From assembly GCA_963641945.1 (NCBI GenBank), contig CAVIDW010000001.1:31136-95135 (forward strand): a stretch of DNA of 64,000 nt. Direction: 5' to 3'. Under the pieces are notes generated by a model that saw nothing but the letters and a program-made list of their open reading frames with translations, did not search any database and was not told the DNA's origin. A program made the position numbers and the translations under genes. Each line of letters opens with the position of its first letter. The first letter of the stretch is position 1. Source of the DNA: a bacterium. Lineage in GTDB: Bacteria > Bacillota_I > Bacilli_A > RF39 > UBA660. Positions 19,617-44,084 of the stretch are shown here, one piece after another.

Positions 19617-21536
19617 ATGAATGATGATTATGGAGTAAATGATATACAAGTATTAGAAGGATTAGAAGCAGTAAGAAAAAGACCTGGTATGTACATTGGT
19701 ACTACTGATGTTAAAGGATTACACCATTTAGTTTGGGAAATCGTTGATAACTCAATTGATGAAGCTTTAGCTGGATATTGTAATAATATTGAGATAATAA
19801 TTAATAAAGATAATTCAATTACTGTTAAAGATGATGGACGTGGAATTCCAGTTGGTGTTCATCCTAAAACAGGAATATCTACTGTAGAAACTGTTTATAC
19901 AGTATTACATGCTGGAGGAAAATTTGGAGGTGGCGGATATAAAGTATCTGGTGGTCTTCACGGAGTAGGTGCTTCAGTAGTTAATGCGCTTTCTAAATGG
20001 GTTACTGTTACAGTTTATAAAGGTGGAAAAGTATATGAAGCTAAATTTGAAGATGGTGGAAAAACTGTTCAAAAGTTAACTGTTATTGGAGAATGTAATG
20101 AAAATAGAACTGGAACAACTGTTTCATTTAAACCTGATCCAGAAATATTTGATACAGATATATATGATTACGAAACTTTAAAGACAAGAACAAGAGAGTT
20201 AGCATTTTTAAATAAGGGATTAAGACTTACTTTAAGAGATGATAGAGATGAAGAGGATACTCAAGGTGAAATATTCTTATATGAAGGTGGAATTAGTGAA
20301 TATGTTAGATTTATTAATCAAGGTAAGACACCTTTACATGATAAAATAATTCACTTAAATGGTGAAAAGAATGATGTTTGGTTTGAAGTAGCTCTTCAAT
20401 ATAATAATGGATATTCAGATAATATATATTCATTTGTTAATAATATTAATACTCATGATGGTGGTACTCATGAAGATGGAGTTAAAAGAGCTTTAGTTAG
20501 AACAATTAATGCTTATGCTAGAAAAAATAATATATTAAAAGATAAAGATGAAAATTTAAAAGAGGATGATGTTAAAGAAGGATTAACAATGATTATTTCT
20601 TGCAAGCATCCTAATCCTCAATTTGAAGGTCAAACTAAGGGAAGACTTGGTAATTCTGAAGTTAGATCTTTAGCTGATTCAGTTTTCTCTGAAGGATTTA
20701 ATCAATTCTTATTAGAAAATCCAGATGAAGCTAAAATAATAGTAAATAAAGCTATATTAGCTCGTAATGCTAGAATGGCTGCTAAAAAAGCTCGTGAAGC
20801 TACTAGAAAATCTGATTTAACTACTACTAATTTTTTTGGTAAGTTGTCTGATTGTAAGAGTAAGGATCCAAGTGTTAGTGAAATATTTATAGTCGAGGGA
20901 GATTCAGCCGGAGGTTCTGCTAAAAAAGGTAGAGATTCAATGACACAAGCTATTCTTCCATTAAGAGGAAAAATATTAAATGTAGAAAAAGCTAGACTTG
21001 ATAAAGCATTGGGAAATGAAGAAATTAAAACTATAATAACTGCTTTTGGTACTGGAATTGGTGAATATTTTGATTTATCTAAATTAAGATACGATAAAAT
21101 TATTATCATGACCGATGCCGATGTAGATGGTGCTCATATTAGAGTATTGTTATTAACATTATTTTATAGATTTTTTAAACCAATTGTTCAAGCTGGTCAC
21201 GTATATGCTGCTCAACCACCATTATTTAGAGTAATGCATGGTAAAACTAGAAAGTATACTTTGGATGAAAAAGAAAAAGATGAATATTTAGCATCTTTAC
21301 CTGAAAATGTAAGAAGTCGTGCTGAAATAGCTCGTATGAAAGGTTTAGGAGAGATGGATGCTGAAGAGTTAAATGAAACAACAATGGATATAAATAAAAG
21401 GGTTTTAAGAAAAATTACTGTTGATGATTGTATTGCAGCAGACGCAATATTTGAAAAATTAATGGGTGATGAAGTAGAACCTAGAAGAGAATTTATTGAA
21501 CAAAATGCTCAATTTGTTCAAAATTTGGATATATAG
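19617..21536 (+). CDS. gyrB: DNA gyrase subunit B
   Basis: 639 aa. GHKL ATPase, TOPRIM ([10 protein letters not shown]), QPPLFR. Confidence 0.97.
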
Positions 21537-21546
21537 GAGGTAGAGA

Positions 21547-24096
21547 ATGGATACTAATGAAAATGTTGATAATTCACAAGTTGTTAACAATGAAAATGAT
21601 TTTTCTGGTACATTTCATGAGAGAGATAGTCACAATGTAAATAATATAGTAGATGAAGTTAAGAGTTCTTTCTTAGATTATTCAATGAGTGTTATAACTT
21701 CTCGTGCTATTCCAGATTTAAGAGATGGTTTGAAACCGGTTCACAGAAGAATTCTTTGGTCTATGTATGAGGAAGGAAATACTCCTGATAAGCCTCACAG
21801 AAAATCAGCAACAACTGTTGGTAATGTTATGGGACATTATCATCCACATGGTGATAGTTCTATTTATGAAGCAATGGTTCGTTTAGCTCAAGATTTTAGC
21901 CAAAGATATATGTTGATTGATGGACATGGAAACTTTGGTAATATAGAAGGTGATGGTGCTGCTGCTTACCGTTATACTGAAGCAAGATTAGCTAAGATTT
22001 CTCTTGAATTATTAAGAGATATCAATAAAGATACTGTTGATATGGATGATAACTTTGATGTTACTAGAAAGGAACCTAAAGTTTTACCTTCTAGATTTCC
22101 AAATATTTTGGTTAATGGTTCAATGGGTATTGCAGTTGGTATGGCTACAAATATTCCTCCACATAATTTAAGAGAAGTTATTGATGGATGTATTGCTTAT
22201 ATTGATAATCCTGATATAGATGTTCTTGGATTAATGAATTATATTAAAGGTCCTGATTTTCCAACAGGTGGTATAATTCTTGGAAATTCCGGTATTAAGA
22301 AGGCATATGAAACAGGTAGGGGTAGTATTACAATAAGAAGTAAGGCAACTATTGAAGAACATAATAATCATAATTGTATTGTTATTTCTGAAGTTCCATA
22401 TGGTGTTAATACTATGGAATTAAAGAATAAGGTTGCAGAATTGGTTCATACAAAGGTAATTGATGGAATATCTGATTATCATACTGATTTAAAAGATGGT
22501 GTTAAGATTACAATTACTTTAAAGAAAGATGCTAATCCACAAGTTGTATTAAATAATCTATATAAACATACATCTTTCCAAATAAATTATGGAATTATAT
22601 TCCTTATGTTAGATGGATTAACTCCTAGAACACTTGGTTTAAAGGATATTATTTCAAAATATATTGATCATCAAAAAGTTGTTATTATTAGAAGAACAAG
22701 ATTTGACTTGGCTAAGGATGAAAAAAGAGTACATATTTTAAATGGATATAAGATAGCACAAGATAATATTGATGAAGTAATTAGAATTATTAAACAAGCT
22801 AAAAATGATGATGAAGCTAAAGCTAATTTAATGGAAAGATTTGGATTAGATTTAATTCAGTCTGAAGCTATTTTAGAGCTAAAATTAAGAAGATTAACTG
22901 GTCTAGAAAGAAGTAAGATAGAAGAAGAGTTAGCTAGCTTATTAAAGGAAATAGAGGAGTTAAAAGCTATATTAGCTTCTGAACAAAAAGTATTAGAAAT
23001 TATTAAAAATGAAATGCTAGAAATTAGAAATAAATATGGTGATGATAGAAGAACTGAGATTGATATGACTGCTGTTGAATATATCGAAGATGAGTCATTA
23101 ATACCTCAAGAAGAAATAATCGTTACTTTAACAAATAAGAATTATATTAAGAGAATTCCTAAGGATACTTATAAGGTTCAACATAGAGGTGGAGTTGGTA
23201 TTAAGGGTATGACTACTACTGATAATGACTTTGTTGAACAGTTAATTTCCTTAAATACTCATGATGACATATTATTCTTTACAAATAAAGGTAAGGTTTA
23301 TAGATTAAAAGGATATAAGATTCCAGAGTATTCTAGAACTGCTAAAGGTCTTCCAATTGTTAATTTATTGCAATTAGAGAAGGATGAAAAGATAAAAACT
23401 GTTATTAAAATATCTAGTAAAGAAGACTTTACAAACAAATGTTTGTTATTTACAACTAAAAATGGATTAATTAAGAGAACTGCTATTGCAGAATTTGAAA
23501 ATATTAGACAAACAGGTAAAATTGCTATTACTTTAAAAGATGATGATGAACTTATTTCAGTAAAAATGACTTCAGGTGATGATCAAGTTCTTATTTGTTC
23601 TTCTAAAGGAAGAATGGCTAGATTTAATGAGAATGAAATCAGAATAATGGGTAGAACAGCTTCTGGTGTTAGGGGAATAAATTTAACTGATGATATATGC
23701 GTAGGAGCTGAAATTTCTGAACTAGGAAAGTCATTATTAGTTGTTACTGAAAACGGATATGGTAAAAAGACTGCTATTGAAGAATATAGAGAAACTAAGC
23801 GTGGTAGTAAGGGAGTTAAAACTCTTAATATTACTGAAAAGAATGGTAATGTAGTAGGCTTCAAATCTACTGATGATAATAAAGATTTAATGATAATTAC
23901 AAATGATGGTGTTATTATAAGAATGGATGTTAAATCTATTTCAACAATGGGTAGAGTTACTAAAGGCGTTAGACTTATAAACTTAAAAGATAATAATAAG
24001 GTTGCTTCAATATCTATTCTTGAAAAGGAATTAGAAGAGGAAAATGATTCTTCAACAATTGAAAGTGTAGAACCTGTTAATGAAGAGAATGAGTAA
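21547..24096 (+). CDS. gyrA: DNA gyrase subunit A
   Basis: 849 aa. Active-site region (AAAYRYTEARL), C-terminal beta-pinwheel repeats, acidic tail. Confidence 0.97.
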   Translation: MDTNENVDNSQVVNNENDFSGTFHERDSHNVNNIVDEVKSSFLDYSMSVITSRAIPDLRDGLKPVHRRILWSMYEEGNTPDKPHRKSATTVGNVMGHYHPHGDSSIYEAMVRLAQDFSQRYMLIDGHGNFGNIEGDGAAAYRYTEARLAKISLELLRDINKDTVDMDDNFDVTRKEPKVLPSRFPNILVNGSMGIAVGMATNIPPHNLREVIDGCIAYIDNPDIDVLGLMNYIKGPDFPTGGIILGNSGIKKAYETGRGSITIRSKATIEEHNNHNCIVISEVPYGVNTMELKNKVAELVHTKVIDGISDYHTDLKDGVKITITLKKDANPQVVLNNLYKHTSFQINYGIIFLMLDGLTPRTLGLKDIISKYIDHQKVVIIRRTRFDLAKDEKRVHILNGYKIAQDNIDEVIRIIKQAKNDDEAKANLMERFGLDLIQSEAILELKLRRLTGLERSKIEEELASLLKEIEELKAILASEQKVLEIIKNEMLEIRNKYGDDRRTEIDMTAVEYIEDESLIPQEEIIVTLTNKNYIKRIPKDTYKVQHRGGVGIKGMTTTDNDFVEQLISLNTHDDILFFTNKGKVYRLKGYKIPEYSRTAKGLPIVNLLQLEKDEKIKTVIKISSKEDFTNKCLLFTTKNGLIKRTAIAEFENIRQTGKIAITLKDDDELISVKMTSGDDQVLICSSKGRMARFNENEIRIMGRTASGVRGINLTDDICVGAEISELGKSLLVVTENGYGKKTAIEEYRETKRGSKGVKTLNITEKNGNVVGFKSTDDNKDLMIITNDGVIIRMDVKSISTMGRVTKGVRLINLKDNNKVASISILEKELEEENDSSTIESVEPVNEENE

Positions 24097-25190: not shown

Positions 25191-25267
25191 GTTTGTAAAT
25201 TTAAGAAAAATTGTGTAAAAAGTTAGATTTAATTGTTGATTTTGTGTTTATTTTGTTGTAAAATTTG

Positions 25268-25346
25268 TTTGTGCAACAATATGTGCATGAACCAGGTCAG
25301 AATTGGAAGATAGCAGCCTTAAATGTAATTATTGTGTGCACTTTTT
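25268..25346 (+). ncRNA. ffs: small SRP RNA (4.5S/scRNA-type) candidate
   Basis: The domain IV signature CCAGGUCAG...GGAAG.UAGCAGCC sits in a GC-richer hairpin (GTGCAAC...GTGTGCAC) ending in T6. An extended -10 (TGTTGTAAAAT) lies upstream. In B. subtilis scr lies next to tadA/dnaX. Confidence 0.6.
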
Positions 25347-25360
25347 TAATGGTGTAAAAA

Positions 25361-36831: not shown

Positions 36832-37386
36832 ATGAGAGAGTATATTAGAAATAGAGTTATTATATGTATACAAATAATTGCTTTGGTAATTATTTCTTTA
36901 AGTTTGCTTAAAAAAGAAACGTTTTCATTATCTACTTTAAGTGTAGCAATGAATAATAATTTAGATAAGTATGTTGATAAAGAAACATTAAGAGAATATC
37001 AAAATCAATTGTATGAGAATGGTCTATATAATCCTGTTTATACTTTTACTGGTGAATTAACTGGATATGCTGGAGATTGTCCTTTATGTTCTGGATATTT
37101 AGCTTGTCCACCAAGAACTAATGTTTTAGAAAATGGAATATATTTTGATGATAAAACTTATGGTAATGTAAGAATTGTTGCTAGTAGTAAAAATTATCCA
37201 TGTGGAACTATATTACAATTTAATGTTAATAAATTATCTAGTGAACCAATTATAGCTATTGTACTTGATAGAGGTGTAGGTGGAAATGTTATAGATTTAT
37301 TGACTGAATCTGAAGAGTTTGCTACTAAAAAAGTTGGCAGAGTTAGAAATCTAGAATTTGAGGTATTAAGAGAGGGTTGGGGTTAA
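36832..37386 (+). CDS. membrane-anchored 3D-domain protein (YabE/YocH-like)
   Basis: 184 aa. N-terminal signal anchor. The C-terminal block fits a 3D domain (TGYAGDCPLCSG...GNVRIVASSKNYPCGT...VLDRG). B. subtilis yabE sits between yabD and rsmA. Confidence 0.55.
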   Translation: MREYIRNRVIICIQIIALVIISLSLLKKETFSLSTLSVAMNNNLDKYVDKETLREYQNQLYENGLYNPVYTFTGELTGYAGDCPLCSGYLACPPRTNVLENGIYFDDKTYGNVRIVASSKNYPCGTILQFNVNKLSSEPIIAIVLDRGVGGNVIDLLTESEEFATKKVGRVRNLEFEVLREGWG

Positions 37387-38174
37387 TGTATAGCTTTGAT
37401 TATAAGAAATCATTAGGTCAAAATTTTTTAATGGATAAAAACATTATATATAAAATATCTGATAGTATTAGTCCTAATGATGATGATTTAATTATAGAAA
37501 TAGGTCCTGGTGCTGGAGCCTTAACTAAAGAATTAGTAAAAAAGAATTGCGATGTTTTATGTTTTGAAATAGATAGAAGATTAGAAGAAACATTATCTAA
37601 AATAGAATCAGATAGATTAAATGTTGTTTTTAATGACTTTTTAAAAGTTGATTTATCTTCTTATATTGATAAAAAATATAAAAATATATTTTTTGTAGGA
37701 AATTTACCATATTATATTACTACGGCGATAATTAATAAAATATTAGATGAATCTGATCCTAAAGAGATAGTTGTCATGATACAAAAAGAAGTTGGAGAAA
37801 GATTTATGGCTTCTCCAAGAAGTAAACAATATAATTCTTTAAGTGTATTTTTACAATATAATTTTGATATATTAAAGGTATGCGATGTTAATAAGAATTG
37901 TTTTGAACCAATTCCTAAAGTTGATAGTATTGTTATAAAATTAATTAAAAATAAAAAAATAATTGCTGATTCAGAAGAAATTTTCTATAAATTAATTAAA
38001 GATGCCTTTAAACAAAAAAGAAAAAATCTTAAAAACAATTTAATTAGTTATGATTTAGATTTAATTGAAGAAAAACTAGAAAAATCTAATAAAAGTCTTA
38101 AAAATAGAGCGGAAGAATTAACTATAGAAGAATTTGTTGATATATCAAATATAATTTATTCTAGAAAAAAATAA
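37377..38174 (+). CDS. rsmA: 16S rRNA (adenine1518/1519-N6)-dimethyltransferase
   Basis: 265 aa. SLGQNFL N-terminal motif and SAM motif EIGPGAGALT. Confidence 0.9.
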   Translation: MGLMYSFDYKKSLGQNFLMDKNIIYKISDSISPNDDDLIIEIGPGAGALTKELVKKNCDVLCFEIDRRLEETLSKIESDRLNVVFNDFLKVDLSSYIDKKYKNIFFVGNLPYYITTAIINKILDESDPKEIVVMIQKEVGERFMASPRSKQYNSLSVFLQYNFDILKVCDVNKNCFEPIPKVDSIVIKLIKNKKIIADSEEIFYKLIKDAFKQKRKNLKNNLISYDLDLIEEKLEKSNKSLKNRAEELTIEEFVDISNIIYSRKK

Positions 38175-38200
38175 TCTTAGTAAAACAAGATTGTTTTTTT
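38173..38200 (+). terminator. rho-independent terminator after rsmA
   Basis: Stem AATCTT/AAGATT followed by GTTTTTTT. Confidence 0.5.
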
Positions 38201-38259
38201 ATGATTTTTATTATATAATTGTTAAAGTAGAAGAGTAGACGATAAAGGAGTTGATTTTT

Positions 38260-40143
38260 GTGGTAAGTTCTTATTCAGCAAGTACAGGATTAACAATTTG
38301 TGCGTTAATGTTTATTGTATTGCTTACCATTATGTTTTTAAGTAAAAAGAAAGATTGGACTTTAAATCAAATGATTTTTTCAGGCTTATTGGTTGTTTTA
38401 ATAATAATGCTTGTTGTTGAAATGATTGCTTCATATACGATGATCAATTCGGATAAATATGATGTTTTAAACACCATTGCTTGTAAAGGATATATATATT
38501 TTTGTTTCTTATTTGAAAATTTATTCATTATATATACTTATGTAGTGGCTAAACAAAAATTTAATAAGGCTGATATTAAAAACTTTGATGTTAAATTATT
38601 TATAGCTGTTGTTATTTGTATGGTATTGCCTTTGTTGATAGTTTTAATATTACCAATAACGCATATAGGTGGTATAAATGGTAGACCCGCAGTTATAGTT
38701 GGATCTGCGGCAAGTGCATTACATATTTATAGTTTGCTTATTAGTATTGCTGTATTGTATTTATTTAATAAGCATAAAAATGATGTTAAATCTATTAGTA
38801 TGTTACCACTCTATTTTTCATTTATTTGTTATTTAGTATTTTTGTTAATGCAAAAAATATTTAATTATGAAATAAATGATTCAACATATTTTTTTGCATT
38901 ACTTATTGCAATATTGTATTTCACTATTGAAAATCAAGATTCTAAACTGATTCTTGAATATCAGAAATCAAAAGAAGAGGCTGATGTTGCTAATAGAGCT
39001 AAAACAGAGTTTTTAATTAATATGTCACATGAAATTAGAACACCTATGAATACGATTTTAGGGTTTAGTGAATCTTTATTAGAAGAAAAACAATTAACTC
39101 CAGAAATTGTAAAAAGAGATTTAAAAAGTATTTGTCAAGCTAGTGATGAATTATTAAATTTAATTAATAATATTCTTGATATTTCTAAATTAGAAACTGG
39201 TCAAGAAAAAGTTGTTGAATCAGAATATAGTTTAGAAAACTTAATATTTGAAATTAATAGTTTTATTCCTCCTAAAATTGATAAAGAAAATCTAAGATTC
39301 AATATAGAAATTAATGAAAACTTACCTAAACAATATTATGGTGATGCTTATAAGATTTATAAAATAGTTACATTTATAATATTAAACGCTATAAATTATA
39401 CAAATTATGGTGAAGTTAAATTAAGTGTTAATGGAAGAACCGTTGATTCGAATAACTTTGAACTTGAATTTGTAGTATCTAATACTGGTCATGCTATGAC
39501 TGTTGAAAACTTTGATAAGAAATTTGAGGATTTTATAAAGTTAGAACATACTGCTGAAAATAATATTGATAATATTAAATTAGGGTTAATTATTGCTAAA
39601 AGACTTATTAATATGTTGGGCGGTAGAATTAATTTTGTTAACGAAAAGGATCAAGGCACAAAATATTATATTAAAATAAGACAAAGAGTATCTGGAACTG
39701 AAAAGATAGGAAATATATTTGAAACTAAAAATAGTACTATGTCTAGTTCTAAAGGAATAGTTGATTGTAGTGGTAGGAATGTATTAATTGTTGATGATAG
39801 TGAAGTTAACTTGAAACTTGCATCTAGATATTTAGAACAATATCAATTTGAAATTGATACTGCGTTAAGTGGTCAAGAATGTTTAAGTAAGGTTAGCCAA
39901 AAGAATTATGATTTAATATTTTTAGATCATATGATGCCTGAAATGGATGGTATTCAAACTATTAAAGCATTAAAATCCACACATGAAAAATTACCTCCTA
40001 TTGTAGCATTAACCGCTAACTCATATGATGGGTTAAAGAGTGATTATATAACAGAAGGATTTTCTGATTATTTGAGTAAACCAATTATATTCAAAGAATT
40101 AAATAAATTAGTTAATAGATTATTTAAAAAAGAGGATGCTTAA
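38260..40143 (+). CDS. hybrid sensor histidine kinase/response-receiver protein (polytopic membrane sensor, HisKA, HATPase, REC)
   Basis: About 6 N-terminal TM helices. H-box [12 protein letters not shown]-boxes, and a C-terminal REC domain ([20 protein letters not shown]). Start uncertain: TTG at 38251 abuts the RBS, so GTG at 38260 is preferred. Confidence 0.8.
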
Positions 40144-40162
40144 TGGAAAGGAGTAATAATTT

Positions 40163-42025
40163 ATGACATTTGGGATAATATTTACAATAGGTAGTTTACT
40201 ATTTTTAATAGCATTAATGATTACTTATTTTTCTAAAGTCACATTTAATCAAATATCTAATCAATTATACAGATTAACATTAATTTTATCTCTTGCATTT
40301 GGCCTTAGTGAGATTTGCAGTATACTTTTATTAAAGTATGTTAATATAGACATAGTGACACATATTACATTTAAATTGCACTGGACAATTGGATTATTAA
40401 TGTATTTGGTATTCTTTATTTATTTGTTCTCTTTAGTATATAAATATAATAATAACAATATAATTGATTTAGTAAAAAAAGAAAAAATTATATCTGTTAT
40501 AACTGCAATATTTATGGGATTGTCAGTTGTATATTGGTTCTTACCATTTAACGGACTGGATATTAATAATTTAACTTTCTTTCCAAGTAAATTGGGAATG
40601 ATTGTGATTCCTGTTGCATTCTTTATTATATGTTTTCTATTAGTTATAATTTATATTCAAAGAAGAAAAGATTTACAAAAAAATATAGGATTAATTGTAT
40701 TTTTTAATTTAGGAGTAGCTGTTATATCATTTGTTTTACAAGTATTATTTAATTATGTTTCATTTTTGCCTTTAGGTGCTGTTGTTGATCTTTTATTTGC
40801 ATATTATTTTTTAGAAAATCCAGATTTACAATTATTAAGTCAATTATTATCTGTCAGAGGTGAAATAGAAAAATCAAATAAAACCAAAACTGATTTCTTA
40901 AGTAATATGACTTATGAAATTAAAATACCAATGAATTCTATTTCGAGTATAAGCGATGCATTATTTAGTTCTCCAACATTTGATGAAAAGTCTGTTAGAG
41001 AAGATATTCAACAAATATATGATGCAGGTACTAACTTAGTAGAAATAGTTAATAATATTCTTGATATATCTAAGATTGAAACTGGCAAAGATTCACTTCA
41101 AGAAAGAGATTATGCTATTAATGATATGGTTGTTGAAGTAACTAATATGATTAAATCTAAATTAGGTGCTAAACCAGTACAATTAATTGTTAATATTGAT
41201 CAAAACATTTCTTCTAAATTAAATGGCGATTCTGCAAAGCTTTATCAATCAATTTTAAATATTATGACTAATTCAGTTAAATACACTGATGTTGGTAAAA
41301 TAACATTAACATTAACAAGTTCTAAAACAAATAATGTTGAAAATTTATTATTTAAAGTTTCAGATACTGGTTCTGGTATTAAACAAGAAGATTATGATAA
41401 ATTATTTACTAAATTTAGTAGACTTGATAATGCTGTTGAAAAAGAAATTGATGGTAGTGGACTTGGACTTGCAATTACTAAAAACTATGTAACTCTTATG
41501 GGTGGTAGAATTTGGTTTGAAAGTCAATATAGAGTTGGTACTACTTTCTATATTGAGGTTCCTCAAAAAATTGTTGATCCTAAACCAATTAGTGAAGCTA
41601 TTAAGGAAGTTAAAAAACCTAAAGTTGATGAAAAGTTAGATTGTTCAGCATATACTGCATTTATTGTTGATGATAATAATCTTAATATTAAGGTTGCTAA
41701 AAGACTTCTTGAACAATATAAATTTAAGGTTGAAAGTGTTACTAATGGAAAAGATTGTATTTATAAGGTTAAAGAAGGTATTCAATATGACATTATATTT
41801 ATGGACCATATGATGCCTGAAATGGATGGTATTGAAACTTTACATGTATTAAAAAAATTAGATGGATATAAGTTACCTCCAATTATTGCATTAACTGCTA
41901 ATGCTATTACTGGTATGAAAGAAATGTACTTGAATGAGGGTTTTGATGAATATCTTTCTAAACCAATTAATACTAATGAATTAGATAGAATCTTAAATAA
42001 GTATTTTAATAAAGATGCTCAATAA
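40163..42025 (+). CDS. paralogous hybrid kinase-like protein whose H-box lacks the phospho-accepting His (NMTYEIKIPMN)
   Basis: 620 aa with the same architecture as the upstream kinase. HATPase N/G boxes (NSVKYTDVG, DTGSGI, GSGLGLA) and the REC Asp ([11 protein letters not shown]) are intact. The HisKA His is Tyr and RTP is KIP. Confidence 0.8.
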   Translation: MTFGIIFTIGSLLFLIALMITYFSKVTFNQISNQLYRLTLILSLAFGLSEICSILLLKYVNIDIVTHITFKLHWTIGLLMYLVFFIYLFSLVYKYNNNNIIDLVKKEKIISVITAIFMGLSVVYWFLPFNGLDINNLTFFPSKLGMIVIPVAFFIICFLLVIIYIQRRKDLQKNIGLIVFFNLGVAVISFVLQVLFNYVSFLPLGAVVDLLFAYYFLENPDLQLLSQLLSVRGEIEKSNKTKTDFLSNMTYEIKIPMNSISSISDALFSSPTFDEKSVREDIQQIYDAGTNLVEIVNNILDISKIETGKDSLQERDYAINDMVVEVTNMIKSKLGAKPVQLIVNIDQNISSKLNGDSAKLYQSILNIMTNSVKYTDVGKITLTLTSSKTNNVENLLFKVSDTGSGIKQEDYDKLFTKFSRLDNAVEKEIDGSGLGLAITKNYVTLMGGRIWFESQYRVGTTFYIEVPQKIVDPKPISEAIKEVKKPKVDEKLDCSAYTAFIVDDNNLNIKVAKRLLEQYKFKVESVTNGKDCIYKVKEGIQYDIIFMDHMMPEMDGIETLHVLKKLDGYKLPPIIALTANAITGMKEMYLNEGFDEYLSKPINTNELDRILNKYFNKDAQ

Positions 42026-42037
42026 TGAGCATTTTTT
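42015..42037 (+). terminator. rho-independent terminator after the second hybrid kinase
   Basis: Perfect 7-bp stem ATGCTCA/TGAGCAT with loop ATAA (contains the stop codon), then T5. Confidence 0.65.
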
Positions 42038-42081
42038 ATGCATAAATTTATTTTATTTTAATAATATGAAATAGGGGTTTT

Positions 42082-42828
42082 ATGATTAAAATATGTGATT
42101 ATGTAACTAGAAATAAATATAATAATGATATTTTATTTAAAGTAAAAAAAATAGTAAATAATAAAGTTATTTTGAGTGGTGTTAATTTAAGACTTTATGC
42201 TGATGCTGATATTAATGATTTAAGAAAAAGTGGAGTTAAAATAGAAAATATTAAGTATGAAGAAAATAATTTAGATAGGAGTAATTATTATTATATTCCT
42301 GGTGTTATTTTACATTTAGATACTGATACTGATTATTTAAAAAAATGCATGAATTATTATAAATCTAAAAATATTAAATGCTATGGGTACGTATTTGAAG
42401 TTAGTGAATTTAGTAAAAAAATAAATGAGTTAATCGATAAGCATAATCCTAACGTTATTGTTATTACAGGTCATGATGCTTATTATAAGAAAACTAATAA
42501 GTATAAAAATAGTAATTATTTTATTGATACTATTAAGTCTATTAGAATAAATATTAGATTGCATGAAGAAACAGCAATAGTTGCTGGTGCTTGTCAAAGT
42601 GATTATGTAGGTTTAATAAAAGCAGGTTCTTCTTTTGCATCTAGTCCTAATCATATAAATATTCATGTGTTAGATCCTGCTATTGTAGCTTCTGAAATTG
42701 CTTTGAGTGATATTAATTACCCATTAGATGTTATGAATATTCTTTCTAAAACTAATTGTAAGAAAGAGGGATTTGGTGGTTTAAAAATAAGAGGTATGAT
42801 GATTTGTGGTTATCCAAGAAAGGAATAA
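42082..42828 (+). CDS. yabG: sporulation-specific protease YabG (peptidase U57)
   Basis: Blocks VIVITGHDAYYKK, AGACQSDY..IKAGSSFASSP..INIHVLDP and GGLKIRG match B. subtilis YabG. Conserved position after rsmA and before veg. Confidence 0.8.
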   Translation: MIKICDYVTRNKYNNDILFKVKKIVNNKVILSGVNLRLYADADINDLRKSGVKIENIKYEENNLDRSNYYYIPGVILHLDTDTDYLKKCMNYYKSKNIKCYGYVFEVSEFSKKINELIDKHNPNVIVITGHDAYYKKTNKYKNSNYFIDTIKSIRINIRLHEETAIVAGACQSDYVGLIKAGSSFASSPNHINIHVLDPAIVASEIALSDINYPLDVMNILSKTNCKKEGFGGLKIRGMMICGYPRKE

Positions 42829-43430: not shown

Positions 43431-43463
43431 TATGATATAATATATATAATATTGGAGGTAAAT

Positions 43464-44084
43464 ATGGAAGAACGAAATCTTAAAAAAAGTAATAATTCTT
43501 TATTTATAATGTTTATATTTTTTTTAATTATATTTGGATTTATATTTTTTTATTTTAAAATTTTTTATAATAATGATGATGGTGGTGAATGTCCTAGTGA
43601 AAATAAATCTATTAGTAACATTAAAGAAGAAGATAGTATTTCATGGTATGATTTAAATTCAATATTTTATATTGAAAAATTAGATAATATTCTTGGGAAA
43701 GAAAACAAAACTGGTTTTTTAAAATATAAAGATAATTATGTATTAAATCCTAGTGGTAACAAAATTAATCCATTAATGATGCTAATAGGCGATAAAGATG
43801 GTGAATCTTATGGAAAAATGTATATATTTGATAATGATAGAAATATTTATACTATTAACTTGGATGATATTATTAATGAAAATGAAAAAATAGAAACTTC
43901 AAAATATAATGGTAAAGATATTATTGATTTATCTTTTACAACTAATTATTCAGTGCCTACAATTAAAGATTTGAAAGATTATTATTTTGATAATTATCAA
44001 GTAAAAGTTATTTATTCAAATAATAAAGAAGAAATATTTGAAGGTAAAAATATTTTATCTGGAACAGTATTAGATTTTGATTAG
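43464..44084 (+). CDS. hypothetical membrane-anchored protein
   Basis: One N-terminal TM helix (LFIMFIFFLIIFGFIFFYF), then a hydrophilic domain with no motifs. Start taken at MEERNLKK. Confidence 0.45.
   Translation: MEERNLKKSNNSLFIMFIFFLIIFGFIFFYFKIFYNNDDGGECPSENKSISNIKEEDSISWYDLNSIFYIEKLDNILGKENKTGFLKYKDNYVLNPSGNKINPLMMLIGDKDGESYGKMYIFDNDRNIYTINLDDIINENEKIETSKYNGKDIIDLSFTTNYSVPTIKDLKDYYFDNYQVKVIYSNNKEEIFEGKNILSGTVLDFD

Follow-up and report, generated by a model that had tools for sequence, protein, structure and literature searches.

Sensor histidine kinases are usually seen as homodimers insulated from their paralogues, heteromers such as RetS-GacS being exceptions, and split kinases are to our knowledge known essentially from one chemotaxis system. 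Here we analysed two adjacent genes, designated HK1 and HK2, in a 64,000-nucleotide stretch of DNA (the window; NCBI GenBank assembly GCA_963641945.1, contig CAVIDW010000001.1, positions 31,136 to 95,135 of the forward strand) from a bacterium of the GTDB lineage Bacteria; Bacillota_I; Bacilli_A; RF39; UBA660. Both genes encode membrane-bound hybrid histidine kinases, and each protein has lost the part of the active site that the other keeps. We propose that HK1 and HK2 form a split kinase, which would have arisen by complementary point degeneration after a tandem duplication and whose intermediates are extant in relatives.

The well-characterised natural split kinase is CheA3/CheA4 of Rhodobacter sphaeroides, in which catalysis and the acceptor His reside on two cooperating polypeptides and neither CheA autophosphorylates alone (PMC3591291, PMC6829392). 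That system is cytoplasmic, of the CheA class and split by whole-domain deletion (P1 versus P3-P4), and its members are not paralogues of the same architecture. In contrast, HK1 and HK2 keep all their domains and are split by point substitutions in HisKA-class hybrid kinases with seven transmembrane (7TM) helices, a kind of split that surveys of domain architecture, as in PMC3591291, cannot detect. The CheA-type domain set (P1 Hpt, P3, P4, P5) is not present in either protein, Pfam giving only HisKA, HATPase_c and Response_reg, and because the domain set differs the pair does not belong to the CheA3/CheA4 family.

Complementation between His-minus and ATP-site-minus mutants is reportedly classic for EnvZ, NtrB and CheA. 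For EnvZ and BarA, such engineered mutants complement each other in trans (PMC4734776), with one subunit lacking the His and the other lacking a working G box, which is the likeness to HK1 and HK2. The difference is that these are laboratory mutants of one homodimeric protein, whereas HK1 and HK2 are natural, fixed and encoded by two diverged genes.

Other described proteins resemble one half of the pair or the way in which two kinases may meet. Spo0B and ChpT are soluble, have neither sensor nor receiver, and are loaded by a receiver rather than by a CA domain. The core of HK1 is like theirs, a DHp-like His hairpin with a CA-like domain that lacks ATP-binding motifs, but HK1 has seven transmembrane (TM) helices and a receiver of its own. 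HK2 resembles DivL of Caulobacter, which has Tyr at the phospho-His position and partners another kinase; DivL is a PAS-containing alphaproteobacterial protein whose CA domain is repurposed as a DivK~P sensor and which acts as an allosteric regulator of CckA (PMC4211667). Unlike DivL, HK2 is a 7TM hybrid kinase with a canonical CA domain and no PAS domain, it adjoins an ATP-site-defective partner, and in its relatives F, S, T, V and N also stand at the His position. In Pseudomonas aeruginosa, RetS and GacS are distinct hybrid kinases that form a DHp-DHp heterodimer, and GacS autophosphorylates in trans (PMC8498467); RetS, however, inhibits GacS as a switch-off, and the two are neither tandem paralogues nor reciprocal in active-site loss. 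We found no report of a natural reciprocal pair of His-minus and ATP-site-minus paralogous sensor kinases in the searchable literature, which is incomplete, so that this absence is not proof. The literature on heterodimeric and pseudo-histidine kinases yielded DivL, RcsD, RetS, PsmA, a ChrS variant and CheA3/CheA4, none of them reciprocal.

Two tandem hybrid kinases with complementary active-site motifs

HK1 (627 amino acids, aa) and HK2 (620 aa) are encoded by adjacent open reading frames (ORFs) in the same (+) orientation and share 32% identity across their full length (Table 1). In both, seven TM helices, predicted from hydropathy and AlphaFold2 (AF2), lead directly into a DHp hairpin, which is followed by the CA domain (HATPase_c) and a C-terminal receiver (REC); Pfam recognised HisKA, HATPase_c and Response_reg in each. 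An initial annotation made from the sequence alone had described tandem hybrid kinases of one architecture, and its gene coordinates and domain order are borne out by these data. No PAS domain was found in HK1 or HK2 by Pfam and hydropathy, the sensor being the 7TM region, which matches no family in Pfam or NCBIfam. Neither kinase has an NCBIfam equivalog, and the best NCBIfam match of HK1 is BarA. The closest solved structure to both is GacS, by sequence and by Foldseek, the matches including 7n0e, 6dk7 and 7z8n, which belong to the RetS-GacS network, and 4q20, a DivL structure. AF2 monomer models compared with Foldseek gave the standard fold for both proteins and nothing beyond it, dimer handedness not being readable from monomers.

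HK1 has the canonical H-box SHEIRTP, as first annotated, and His257 within it is the sole phospho-acceptor His in the pair. The box retains the phosphotransfer/phosphatase motif HEIRT (HExxT), including the catalytic Glu and the phosphatase Thr. GHKL ATPases bind the adenine through a hydrogen bond with the G1 Asp and the phosphates through the G2 glycines, and in Hsp90, GyrB, NtrB, EnvZ and CheA nucleotide binding is lost on single substitution of such residues. In HK1, aligned to the DTGIGL of GacS, G1 reads NTGHAM, with Asn for the adenine-binding Asp and Ala for the second Gly; G2 reads NIKLGL, with N and K in place of its first two glycines; and the ATP-contacting Lys of the N box is Asn (LNAINYT), the Mg-binding Asn being retained. 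HATPase_c was matched at 45.1 bits in HK1 against 90.0 bits in HK2, and HisKA at 65.7 and 38.4 bits, respectively. Judged by its motifs, HK1 is not a competent kinase, and its description in the initial annotation as the catalytically competent paralogue is not borne out.

HK2 shows the reverse state. Its degenerate H-box, NMTYEIKIPMN, carries Tyr251 at the phospho-His position, with the R and T of HExxT further along also altered. The N box (NSVKYT), G1 box (DTGSGI), G2 box (GSGLGL) and receiver residues (D503, D504, D548, T578, K600) are all intact; on the Tyr and on these intact sites the first reading was right. The receiver of HK1 is likewise complete. All motif calls hold in residue-level alignments of both proteins to GacS and HK853. 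At the level of motifs the pair is therefore reciprocal: HK1 has the His but no ATP site, HK2 has the ATP site but no His, and neither alone has all kinase-defining features. By the same motifs, the acceptor His and the ATP-binding domain lie on separate co-encoded polypeptides, which is one of the features of a split kinase.

The initial annotation had taken HK1 for a competent autokinase, with HK2 as its non-phosphorylatable partner or, through its receiver, a phosphate sink. The perfect H-box of HK1 and the intact receiver of HK2 agree with such an arrangement, but HK1 is without the G1 Asp, a G1 Gly, two G2 Gly and the N-box Lys, and a mere sink needs no perfectly conserved ATP site in HK2. 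No specific support for the sink was found, and we regard this version as very improbable. Its wider suggestion, that the two proteins form a heterodimer or phosphorylate in trans, has become the explanation that fits best, although the roles are not those of a competent and a dead partner, as each protein lacks what the other keeps.

Conservation and selection in the two families

To describe the two families we used the best 120 homologue clusters of each protein, at 47-93% identity for HK1 and 45-92% for HK2. Alignment of the H-boxes within these clusters showed that the stretch around the His is invariant in the HK1 family (120/120 clusters), whereas the corresponding position of the HK2 family is His-less in 82 of 120 clusters (Y in 68, T in 5, S in 4, V in 3 and F in 2) and His in the other 38. 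The ATP sites showed the converse. In the HK1 family the G1 box has N, H and M in 120/120 clusters each and A in 113/120, and its Asp is found in none; at the first G2 Gly position there is S in 93, N in 14, T in 9 and G in only 4, at the second K in 54, T in 50 and N in 7. The N-box Asn is kept in 120/120, while the Lys position is E in 57, K in 52, D in 9 and N in 2. In the HK2 family, G1 (D-T-G-x-G-I), G2 (G-x-G-L/F-G-L), the N-box Asn and a K or R at the Lys position are each found in 120/120 clusters. The receiver active-site residues (DD...D...T...K) are invariant in both families, 120/120 clusters in each. An exhaustive search of representatives at 50% identity gave about 35 more HK1-type clusters in which the CA domain, and often the receiver, is decayed to varying degrees; they retain the H-box His with one H-to-L exception. 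The same search gave further His-less HK2-types with Y, N, S or Q. The altered G1 pocket of HK1 is itself non-random, N-T-G-H-A-M being nearly invariant with a new His in all 120 clusters.

For the measurement of selection, the reference was a 92-93%-identical orthologue present on at least 14 contigs, four of which were checked and all carried TAT at the Tyr codon. Over the full length, dN/dS was 0.061 for HK1 and 0.107 for HK2. By domain, the values for HK1 were 0.024 in DHp, 0.017 in the pseudo-CA domain and 0.044 in REC; HK2 had 0 nonsynonymous against 13 synonymous changes in DHp, 0.018 in CA and 0.020 in REC. Only the membrane sensor domains evolved faster, at 0.10 in HK1 and 0.23 in HK2. 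Both proteins are thus under strong purifying selection, with cytoplasmic dN/dS of 0-0.04.

These figures bear on the possibility of an artefact or of decaying pseudogenes, that is, a TAT sequencing error at Tyr251, which the initial annotation had named as a risk, or genes in the course of being lost. Four independent contigs of the 92%-identical relative carry TAT at this codon, and a relative at 54% identity has TAC. Together with the 82 His-less clusters, the low dN/dS (0.06-0.11) and the intact full-length ORFs, this rules out both error and decay, and we give such an explanation practically no weight.

After the loss of the His, the DHp helix below it changed in HK2 from S-H-EIR-S..A..GFS to T-Y-EIK-V..L..SLC, a state conserved at 84-100% within the clade. 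As read from these alignments, the DHp surface of HK2 was remodelled and then fixed, and is not drifting freely. A replacement that so often carries a hydroxyl, with Y, S or T in 77 of the 82 His-less clusters, might point to autophosphorylation of HK2 on the hydroxyl of Tyr251 (Ser or Thr in relatives) and signalling by O-phosphorylation, which is said to have been proposed once for DivL Tyr. Yet F (2 clusters) and V (3 clusters) occur in equally conserved proteins, all variants lie single-nucleotide steps from TAT, consistent with drift, and the normal mechanism would not allow an O-phosphate to pass to the intact Asp of the receiver. We hold there to be little chance that HK2 signals in this way.

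Synonymous divergence from the closest relative, L081, was 0.34-0.49 in ksgA, HK1, HK2 and yabG (37380-42828) and only 0.09-0.20 in the flanking mfd, spoVT, tatD, tilS and ftsH. The region 37380-42828 is a local island of raised divergence, possibly caused by recombination.

Tandem duplication and the order of losses

Wherever DNA or gene calls covered the locus (the window, L001-L009, L012, L081-L092 and GCA_016648615), an HK1-type gene stands immediately 5' of an HK2-type gene in the same orientation and abuts or overlaps it, and the outcome was the same with HK1 or HK2 as query. In L088 the pair is duplicated en bloc in the order HK1-type, Tyr-type, HK1-type, Tyr-type. All four genes keep their motif states; genes of like type share 54% and 70% identity, those of unlike type about 30%. 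For GCA_016648615, gene lengths and Pfam content alone indicate the same four-gene layout.

In a neighbour-joining tree built from DHp, CA and REC of 75 taxa (390 columns, 100 bootstraps), the single-gene relatives L010, L011 and L013-L015, all of them canonical, fell outside one duplication (bootstrap 80), and the HK1-types and the HK2-types formed two clades, both supported by a bootstrap of 100. Loss of the ATP site came before loss of the His, because every HK1-type is ATP-site-negative while many HK2-types are still canonical: L001, L002, L004, L005, L006, L008, L012, L091 and L092 have HK2-types with the His and all other motifs. The initial annotation held that a His in related strains would speak against the Tyr. 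Such relatives do exist, but they are distant and represent an earlier evolutionary state, not an error in the window sequence.

The His-less clade with Y, F, S, T or V, which includes the window, has bootstrap 100 and a codon path from CAT to TAT followed by single steps to TTT, TCT and others. A separate His-less lineage, L007/L009, has Asn through a path from CAT to AAT or AAC. The HK2 His was probably lost twice independently, on the evidence of the differing codon paths and of 63 against 26 of 100 bootstraps, which falls short of proof. In L007, the HK1-type is reduced to its His box, with a CA domain of 27 bits and a receiver below threshold with a broken acidic pair, while the HK2-type is without the His but retains CA and REC; from these motif states, the path from CA of HK2 to the His of HK1 to REC of HK2 would be the only complete one there. 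In L009 (10001-11836), the HK2-type with Asn for His is also without the G2 glycines (SSNFGL), G1 being intact. Taken together, these sequence comparisons are best explained if an ordinary hybrid sensor kinase was duplicated in tandem and the two copies then lost complementary parts of the active site.

Output partners in relatives

RpfC/RpfG-type systems consist of a polytopic-membrane hybrid kinase, an Hpt and a REC-HD-GYP regulator. A similar gene set, Hpt, then REC-HD_5, then hybrid kinase or kinases, is found in the single-gene and His-retaining relatives: genes for a 120-aa Hpt and a REC-HD_5 regulator of about 520 aa precede the kinase genes in L010, L011 and L013-L015, which are single-gene relatives, and in L001, L002, L004 and L008, which are His-retaining pairs. 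The Hpt-like protein has the motif VHALKSxxxxLG and scores 23-24 bits, slightly below the Pfam cut-off. In L006 and L012 the HK2-type carries an Hpt as a C-terminal fusion. Because single-gene relatives and the four His-retaining pairs carry these genes, the ancestral system is read, from gene content, as a relay of hybrid kinase, Hpt and REC-HD-GYP protein with an RpfC/RpfG-like gene set. The likeness has its limits, as there is no family-level homology, NCBIfam gives no equivalog, and the window and the His-less relatives are without a nearby Hpt or regulator.

The lack of an adjacent Hpt or output regulator had been remarked on at the outset, and it extends to the whole 64-kb window, in which custom hidden Markov models built from the relatives found no Hpt, further receiver or REC-HD-GYP regulator. 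Likewise, no Hpt or REC-HD-GYP regulator was found within about 10 kb of any His-less pair. The Hpt profile gave 1372 family members in the protein collection, and among the best 120 none was matched to a kinase-pair contig.

Some features of these partner genes stand apart. In L086 (11903-12355), a small receiver-type gene of 150 aa with an N-terminal TM helix, its conserved Thr changed to Ile, follows the His-less pair, and in GCA_016648615 a 176-aa receiver-type gene follows the second pair; neither has a counterpart in the window. The regulators of L001 (6485-8095) and L010 (8409-9962) have YYDLG at the HD dyad, and their Pfam match begins at profile position 33-49. From these residues, the REC + HD_5 regulator of the relatives may be a non-catalytic HD-GYP variant.

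A proposed hetero-complex and the points that weigh against it

HK2 has a perfect CA domain and no His, HK1 a perfect acceptor and no ATP site; the simplest cause of the selection that keeps them so would be cross-phosphorylation. Moreover, loss of the His would have been tolerable in HK2 only if its catalytic domain already served the His of HK1 in the ancestor. Our favoured reading, which we think has somewhat the better part of the probability, is an obligate hetero-complex in which the catalytic domain of HK2 phosphorylates His257 of HK1 and the phosphate then goes to the receivers, in other words a kinase split by point degeneracy. Chemically, this reaction is plausible in view of the trans complementation between mutants of EnvZ and BarA (PMC4734776), BarA being the best NCBIfam match of HK1, of the trans autophosphorylation of GacS and its canonical-looking DHp heterodimer with RetS (PMC8498467), and of the natural split in CheA3/CheA4 (PMC3591291, PMC6829392).

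In such a scheme, HK1 and HK2 would be made from one bicistronic mRNA and would join through their DHp helices as a heterodimer or hetero-oligomer. The catalytic domain of HK2 would phosphorylate His257 in trans, and the phosphoryl group would move on to the receiver of HK1, of HK2 or of both, in which the Asp is intact, and then to a partner encoded outside the window, a part played in relatives by the 120-aa Hpt and the REC-HD-GYP-type regulator. In this complex, one phosphorylation site would receive input from two different membrane sensor domains. The sequences show the motif states and how well they are conserved, the selection on both genes, their adjacency and block duplication, and the order of losses; the physical association, the trans-phosphorylation and the downstream route we infer from them. 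Support for the complex itself is indirect and consists of the adjacency, co-duplication and co-divergence of HK1 and HK2. The wider claim, that this is a naturally evolved obligate heteromeric kinase with complementary paralogue losses and one site served in trans, gated by two 7TM sensors, we judge to be evenly balanced between true and false.

Several points weigh against a trans-acting kinase. ArcB and EvgS autophosphorylate in cis (PMC4734776), and hence the outcome for HK1 and HK2 cannot be assumed from EnvZ and BarA; a DHp of the cis type would defeat a simple heterodimer, because the CA domain of HK2 would then reach its own Tyr helix. The strongly conserved pocket of HK1, with its invariant His, may bind something, conceivably a nucleotide in a non-canonical manner. 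The prevalence of hydroxyl side chains at the lost His and the missing Hpt and regulator, in the window and near every His-less pair, are further points of this kind, as is L009, in whose lineage catalysis may have been abandoned unless the metagenome-assembled genome is in error.

The same missing partners, together with the G2 loss in L009, the decayed receivers of several HK1-type representatives and the remodelled, then fixed DHp surface of HK2, would also suit a non-catalytic membrane signalling or scaffolding complex, in which the nucleotide binding of HK2 and the conserved surfaces serve conformation only. All five receiver residues are intact in 120/120 clusters of each family, however, and the H-box of HK1 is invariant, a conservation that is hard to explain without phosphoryl chemistry. 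We consider a purely structural role quite unlikely.

Slightly more plausible, but still improbable in our opinion, is a division of labour in which HK1 is a membrane-bound phosphotransferase or phosphatase of the Spo0B/ChpT kind, fed by another kinase, and HK2 an ATP-binding allosteric pseudokinase that regulates HK1 after the manner of DivL or RetS. The conserved His of HK1 on a DHp hairpin beside a CA-like domain without ATP motifs follows the Spo0B/ChpT logic, its HExxT phosphatase motif is retained, and HK2 has Tyr for His as in DivL, which is itself among the structural matches. Such a shuttle, however, requires a third kinase. DivL-type pseudokinases have CA domains that are degenerate or dispensable, whereas the catalytic CA residues of HK2, including the Mg-binding Asn and the G1 and G2 boxes, are kept in 120/120 clusters. 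Strict pairing and duplication as a unit also suit one enzyme better than a regulator plus a shuttle.

Operon layout and genomic context

HK1 is preceded by a ribosome-binding site (RBS) and a GTG start that agrees with the 627 aa called for its orthologue by gene callers. The spacer between the genes, with the RBS of HK2, suggests by its layout co-transcription and coupled translation (Table 1). Hairpins stand on both sides. The one 3' of ksgA is likely, from its sequence, to be a terminator between ksgA and the kinase operon; a consensus terminator scanner omitted it because it has too few G-C pairs. The other overlaps the HK2 stop and is likely to be the terminator of the two-gene operon; the scan reported it on the minus strand, its stem being palindromic. 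With these two hairpins, HK1-HK2 look like a self-contained bicistronic operon. A consensus promoter scan gave 37 matches against 43 expected and is uninformative in DNA of 24% G+C.

Table 1. Sequence features of the HK1-HK2 locus (positions in the window)
Feature	Position	Strand	Description	Basis
Hairpin and T-run 3' of ksgA	38168..38195	+	AATCTT-agtaaaac-AAGATT GTTTTTTT	read from sequence
RBS and start of HK1	38244..38262	+	AAAGGAG, 9 nt from RBS to GTG (38260)	sequence
HK1	38260..40143	+	7 TM aa 1-224, DHp 228-313, pseudo-CA 321-477, REC 507-622	Pfam, AF2 pLDDT 78, hydropathy
HK1 H-box	39025..39045	+	SHEIRTP; His257 = CAT 39028-39030	sequence
HK1 N-box remnant	39382..39402	+	LNAINYT; Mg-binding Asn retained, ATP-contacting Lys to Asn	sequence, family alignment
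HK1 pseudo-G1 box	39481..39498	+	NTGHAM (aa 408-413); adenine-binding Asp to Asn, second Gly to Ala	aligned to GacS DTGIGL
HK1 pseudo-G2 box	39571..39588	+	NIKLGL; first two Gly of GxGLGL replaced (N, K)	sequence, family alignment
HK1 receiver active site	39790..40083	+	D512, D513, D556, T585, K607, all intact	sequence, family alignment
HK1-HK2 spacer	40146..40165	+	19 nt; RBS GGAAAGGAG and ATG of HK2	sequence
HK2	40163..42025	+	7 TM aa 1-218, DHp 220-306, CA 315-475, REC 498-615	Pfam, AF2 pLDDT 78
HK2 degenerate H-box	40904..40936	+	NMTYEIKIPMN; Tyr251 = TAT 40913-40915 at phospho-His position	sequence
HK2 N box	41267..41287	+	TNSVKYT, intact	sequence, family alignment
HK2 G1 box	41363..41380	+	DTGSGI, intact	sequence, family alignment
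HK2 G2 box	41453..41470	+	GSGLGL, intact	sequence, family alignment
HK2 receiver active site	41666..41965	+	D503, D504, D548, T578, K600, all intact	sequence, family alignment
Hairpin overlapping HK2 stop	42015..42038	+	palindromic; ATGCTCA-ATA-ATGAGCAT, then TTTTTT (likely terminator)	terminator scan, sequence

The pair is flanked by mfd-spoVT-tatD-ksgA on one side and yabG-veg-spoVG-yabP-yabQ-divIC-tilS-ftsH on the other, an ordinary origin-proximal Firmicute cluster. The initial annotation took the sporulation-associated neighbours as a hint of a phosphorelay-like input. We reject this link: the ksgA-yabG slot holds the pair only in one sub-lineage (also in L003, L081-85, L087, L089 and L090, and inverted in L012), and in other genomes it sits between dnaE and secA, beside M16 peptidases and secDF/relA, behind its own Hpt and REC-HD-GYP genes, or in yet other places. 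Since the location is not conserved and the cluster is generic, the neighbourhood says nothing about sporulation; no conserved sporulation linkage of the kind that would place the pair with the Spo0F/Spo0A-linked kinases (KinA-E, clostridial orphan kinases) was found. The remark that hybrid kinases are uncommon in Firmicutes holds loosely, as the scan gave about 600 related hybrid kinases, mostly in Lachnospiraceae and other Clostridia.

The replication origin falls within the window, with a GC skew that flips at about 14-15 kb, dnaA at 15191-16591 and dnaN at 16659-17849 (Pfam); two large ORFs at 19617-24096 are taken for gyrB and gyrA from their place and size alone. HK1 and HK2 are on the leading strand, some 23 kb away from the origin. 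Rfam found only a small SRP RNA just 5' of dnaX and one tRNA in the window (25263-25357 and 62815-62885). Between tatD and ksgA, at the yabE position, 36832-37386 encodes a 184-aa membrane-anchored protein without a Pfam or NCBIfam match that is 62-64% conserved in relatives. Between spoVG and yabP (43452-44084) stands a 210-aa ORF that has a TM helix at its N-terminus and belongs to no Pfam or NCBIfam family; it has a 207-aa counterpart in the 92% relative, no gene is called there in L085, L087 and L090, where yabP directly follows spoVG, and tblastn found nothing in L003. In L085 (11952-12703), gene calling splits yabG (Peptidase_U57), which lies beside the kinase pair, into ORFs of 60 and 161 aa, a possible frameshift or pseudogene.

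Meaning for the gut Bacilli and for histidine kinases

As the homologues show, the HK1/HK2 arrangement is conserved throughout a wide clade of uncultured gut Bacilli with very low G+C. These bacteria appear to have fixed the design by which biochemists distinguish cis from trans action, a His-minus subunit beside an ATP-site-minus subunit. If true, this would be the first natural heteromeric kinase by reciprocal loss in the classical HisKA membrane-sensor class, unseen by domain-based surveys, and a textbook case of complexity locked in through reciprocal degeneration.

If confirmed, the finding would mean that pseudokinase calls from a single residue and split-kinase counts from missing domains both misjudge such systems. 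Modelling suggests that split kinases can yield ultrasensitive or bistable responses (PMC3591291, PMC6829392), a theory to which a confirmed HK1-HK2 kinase would connect (PMC3591291). Both proteins are open to in vitro testing without culturing the organism. Confirmed, the pair would offer, for the study of asymmetric signalling and of how two inputs are integrated, a heterodimeric sensor kinase that is natural and genetically defined, and, as intermediate stages survive in its relatives, a stepwise record of the passage from a homomer to an obligate heteromer by reciprocal loss.

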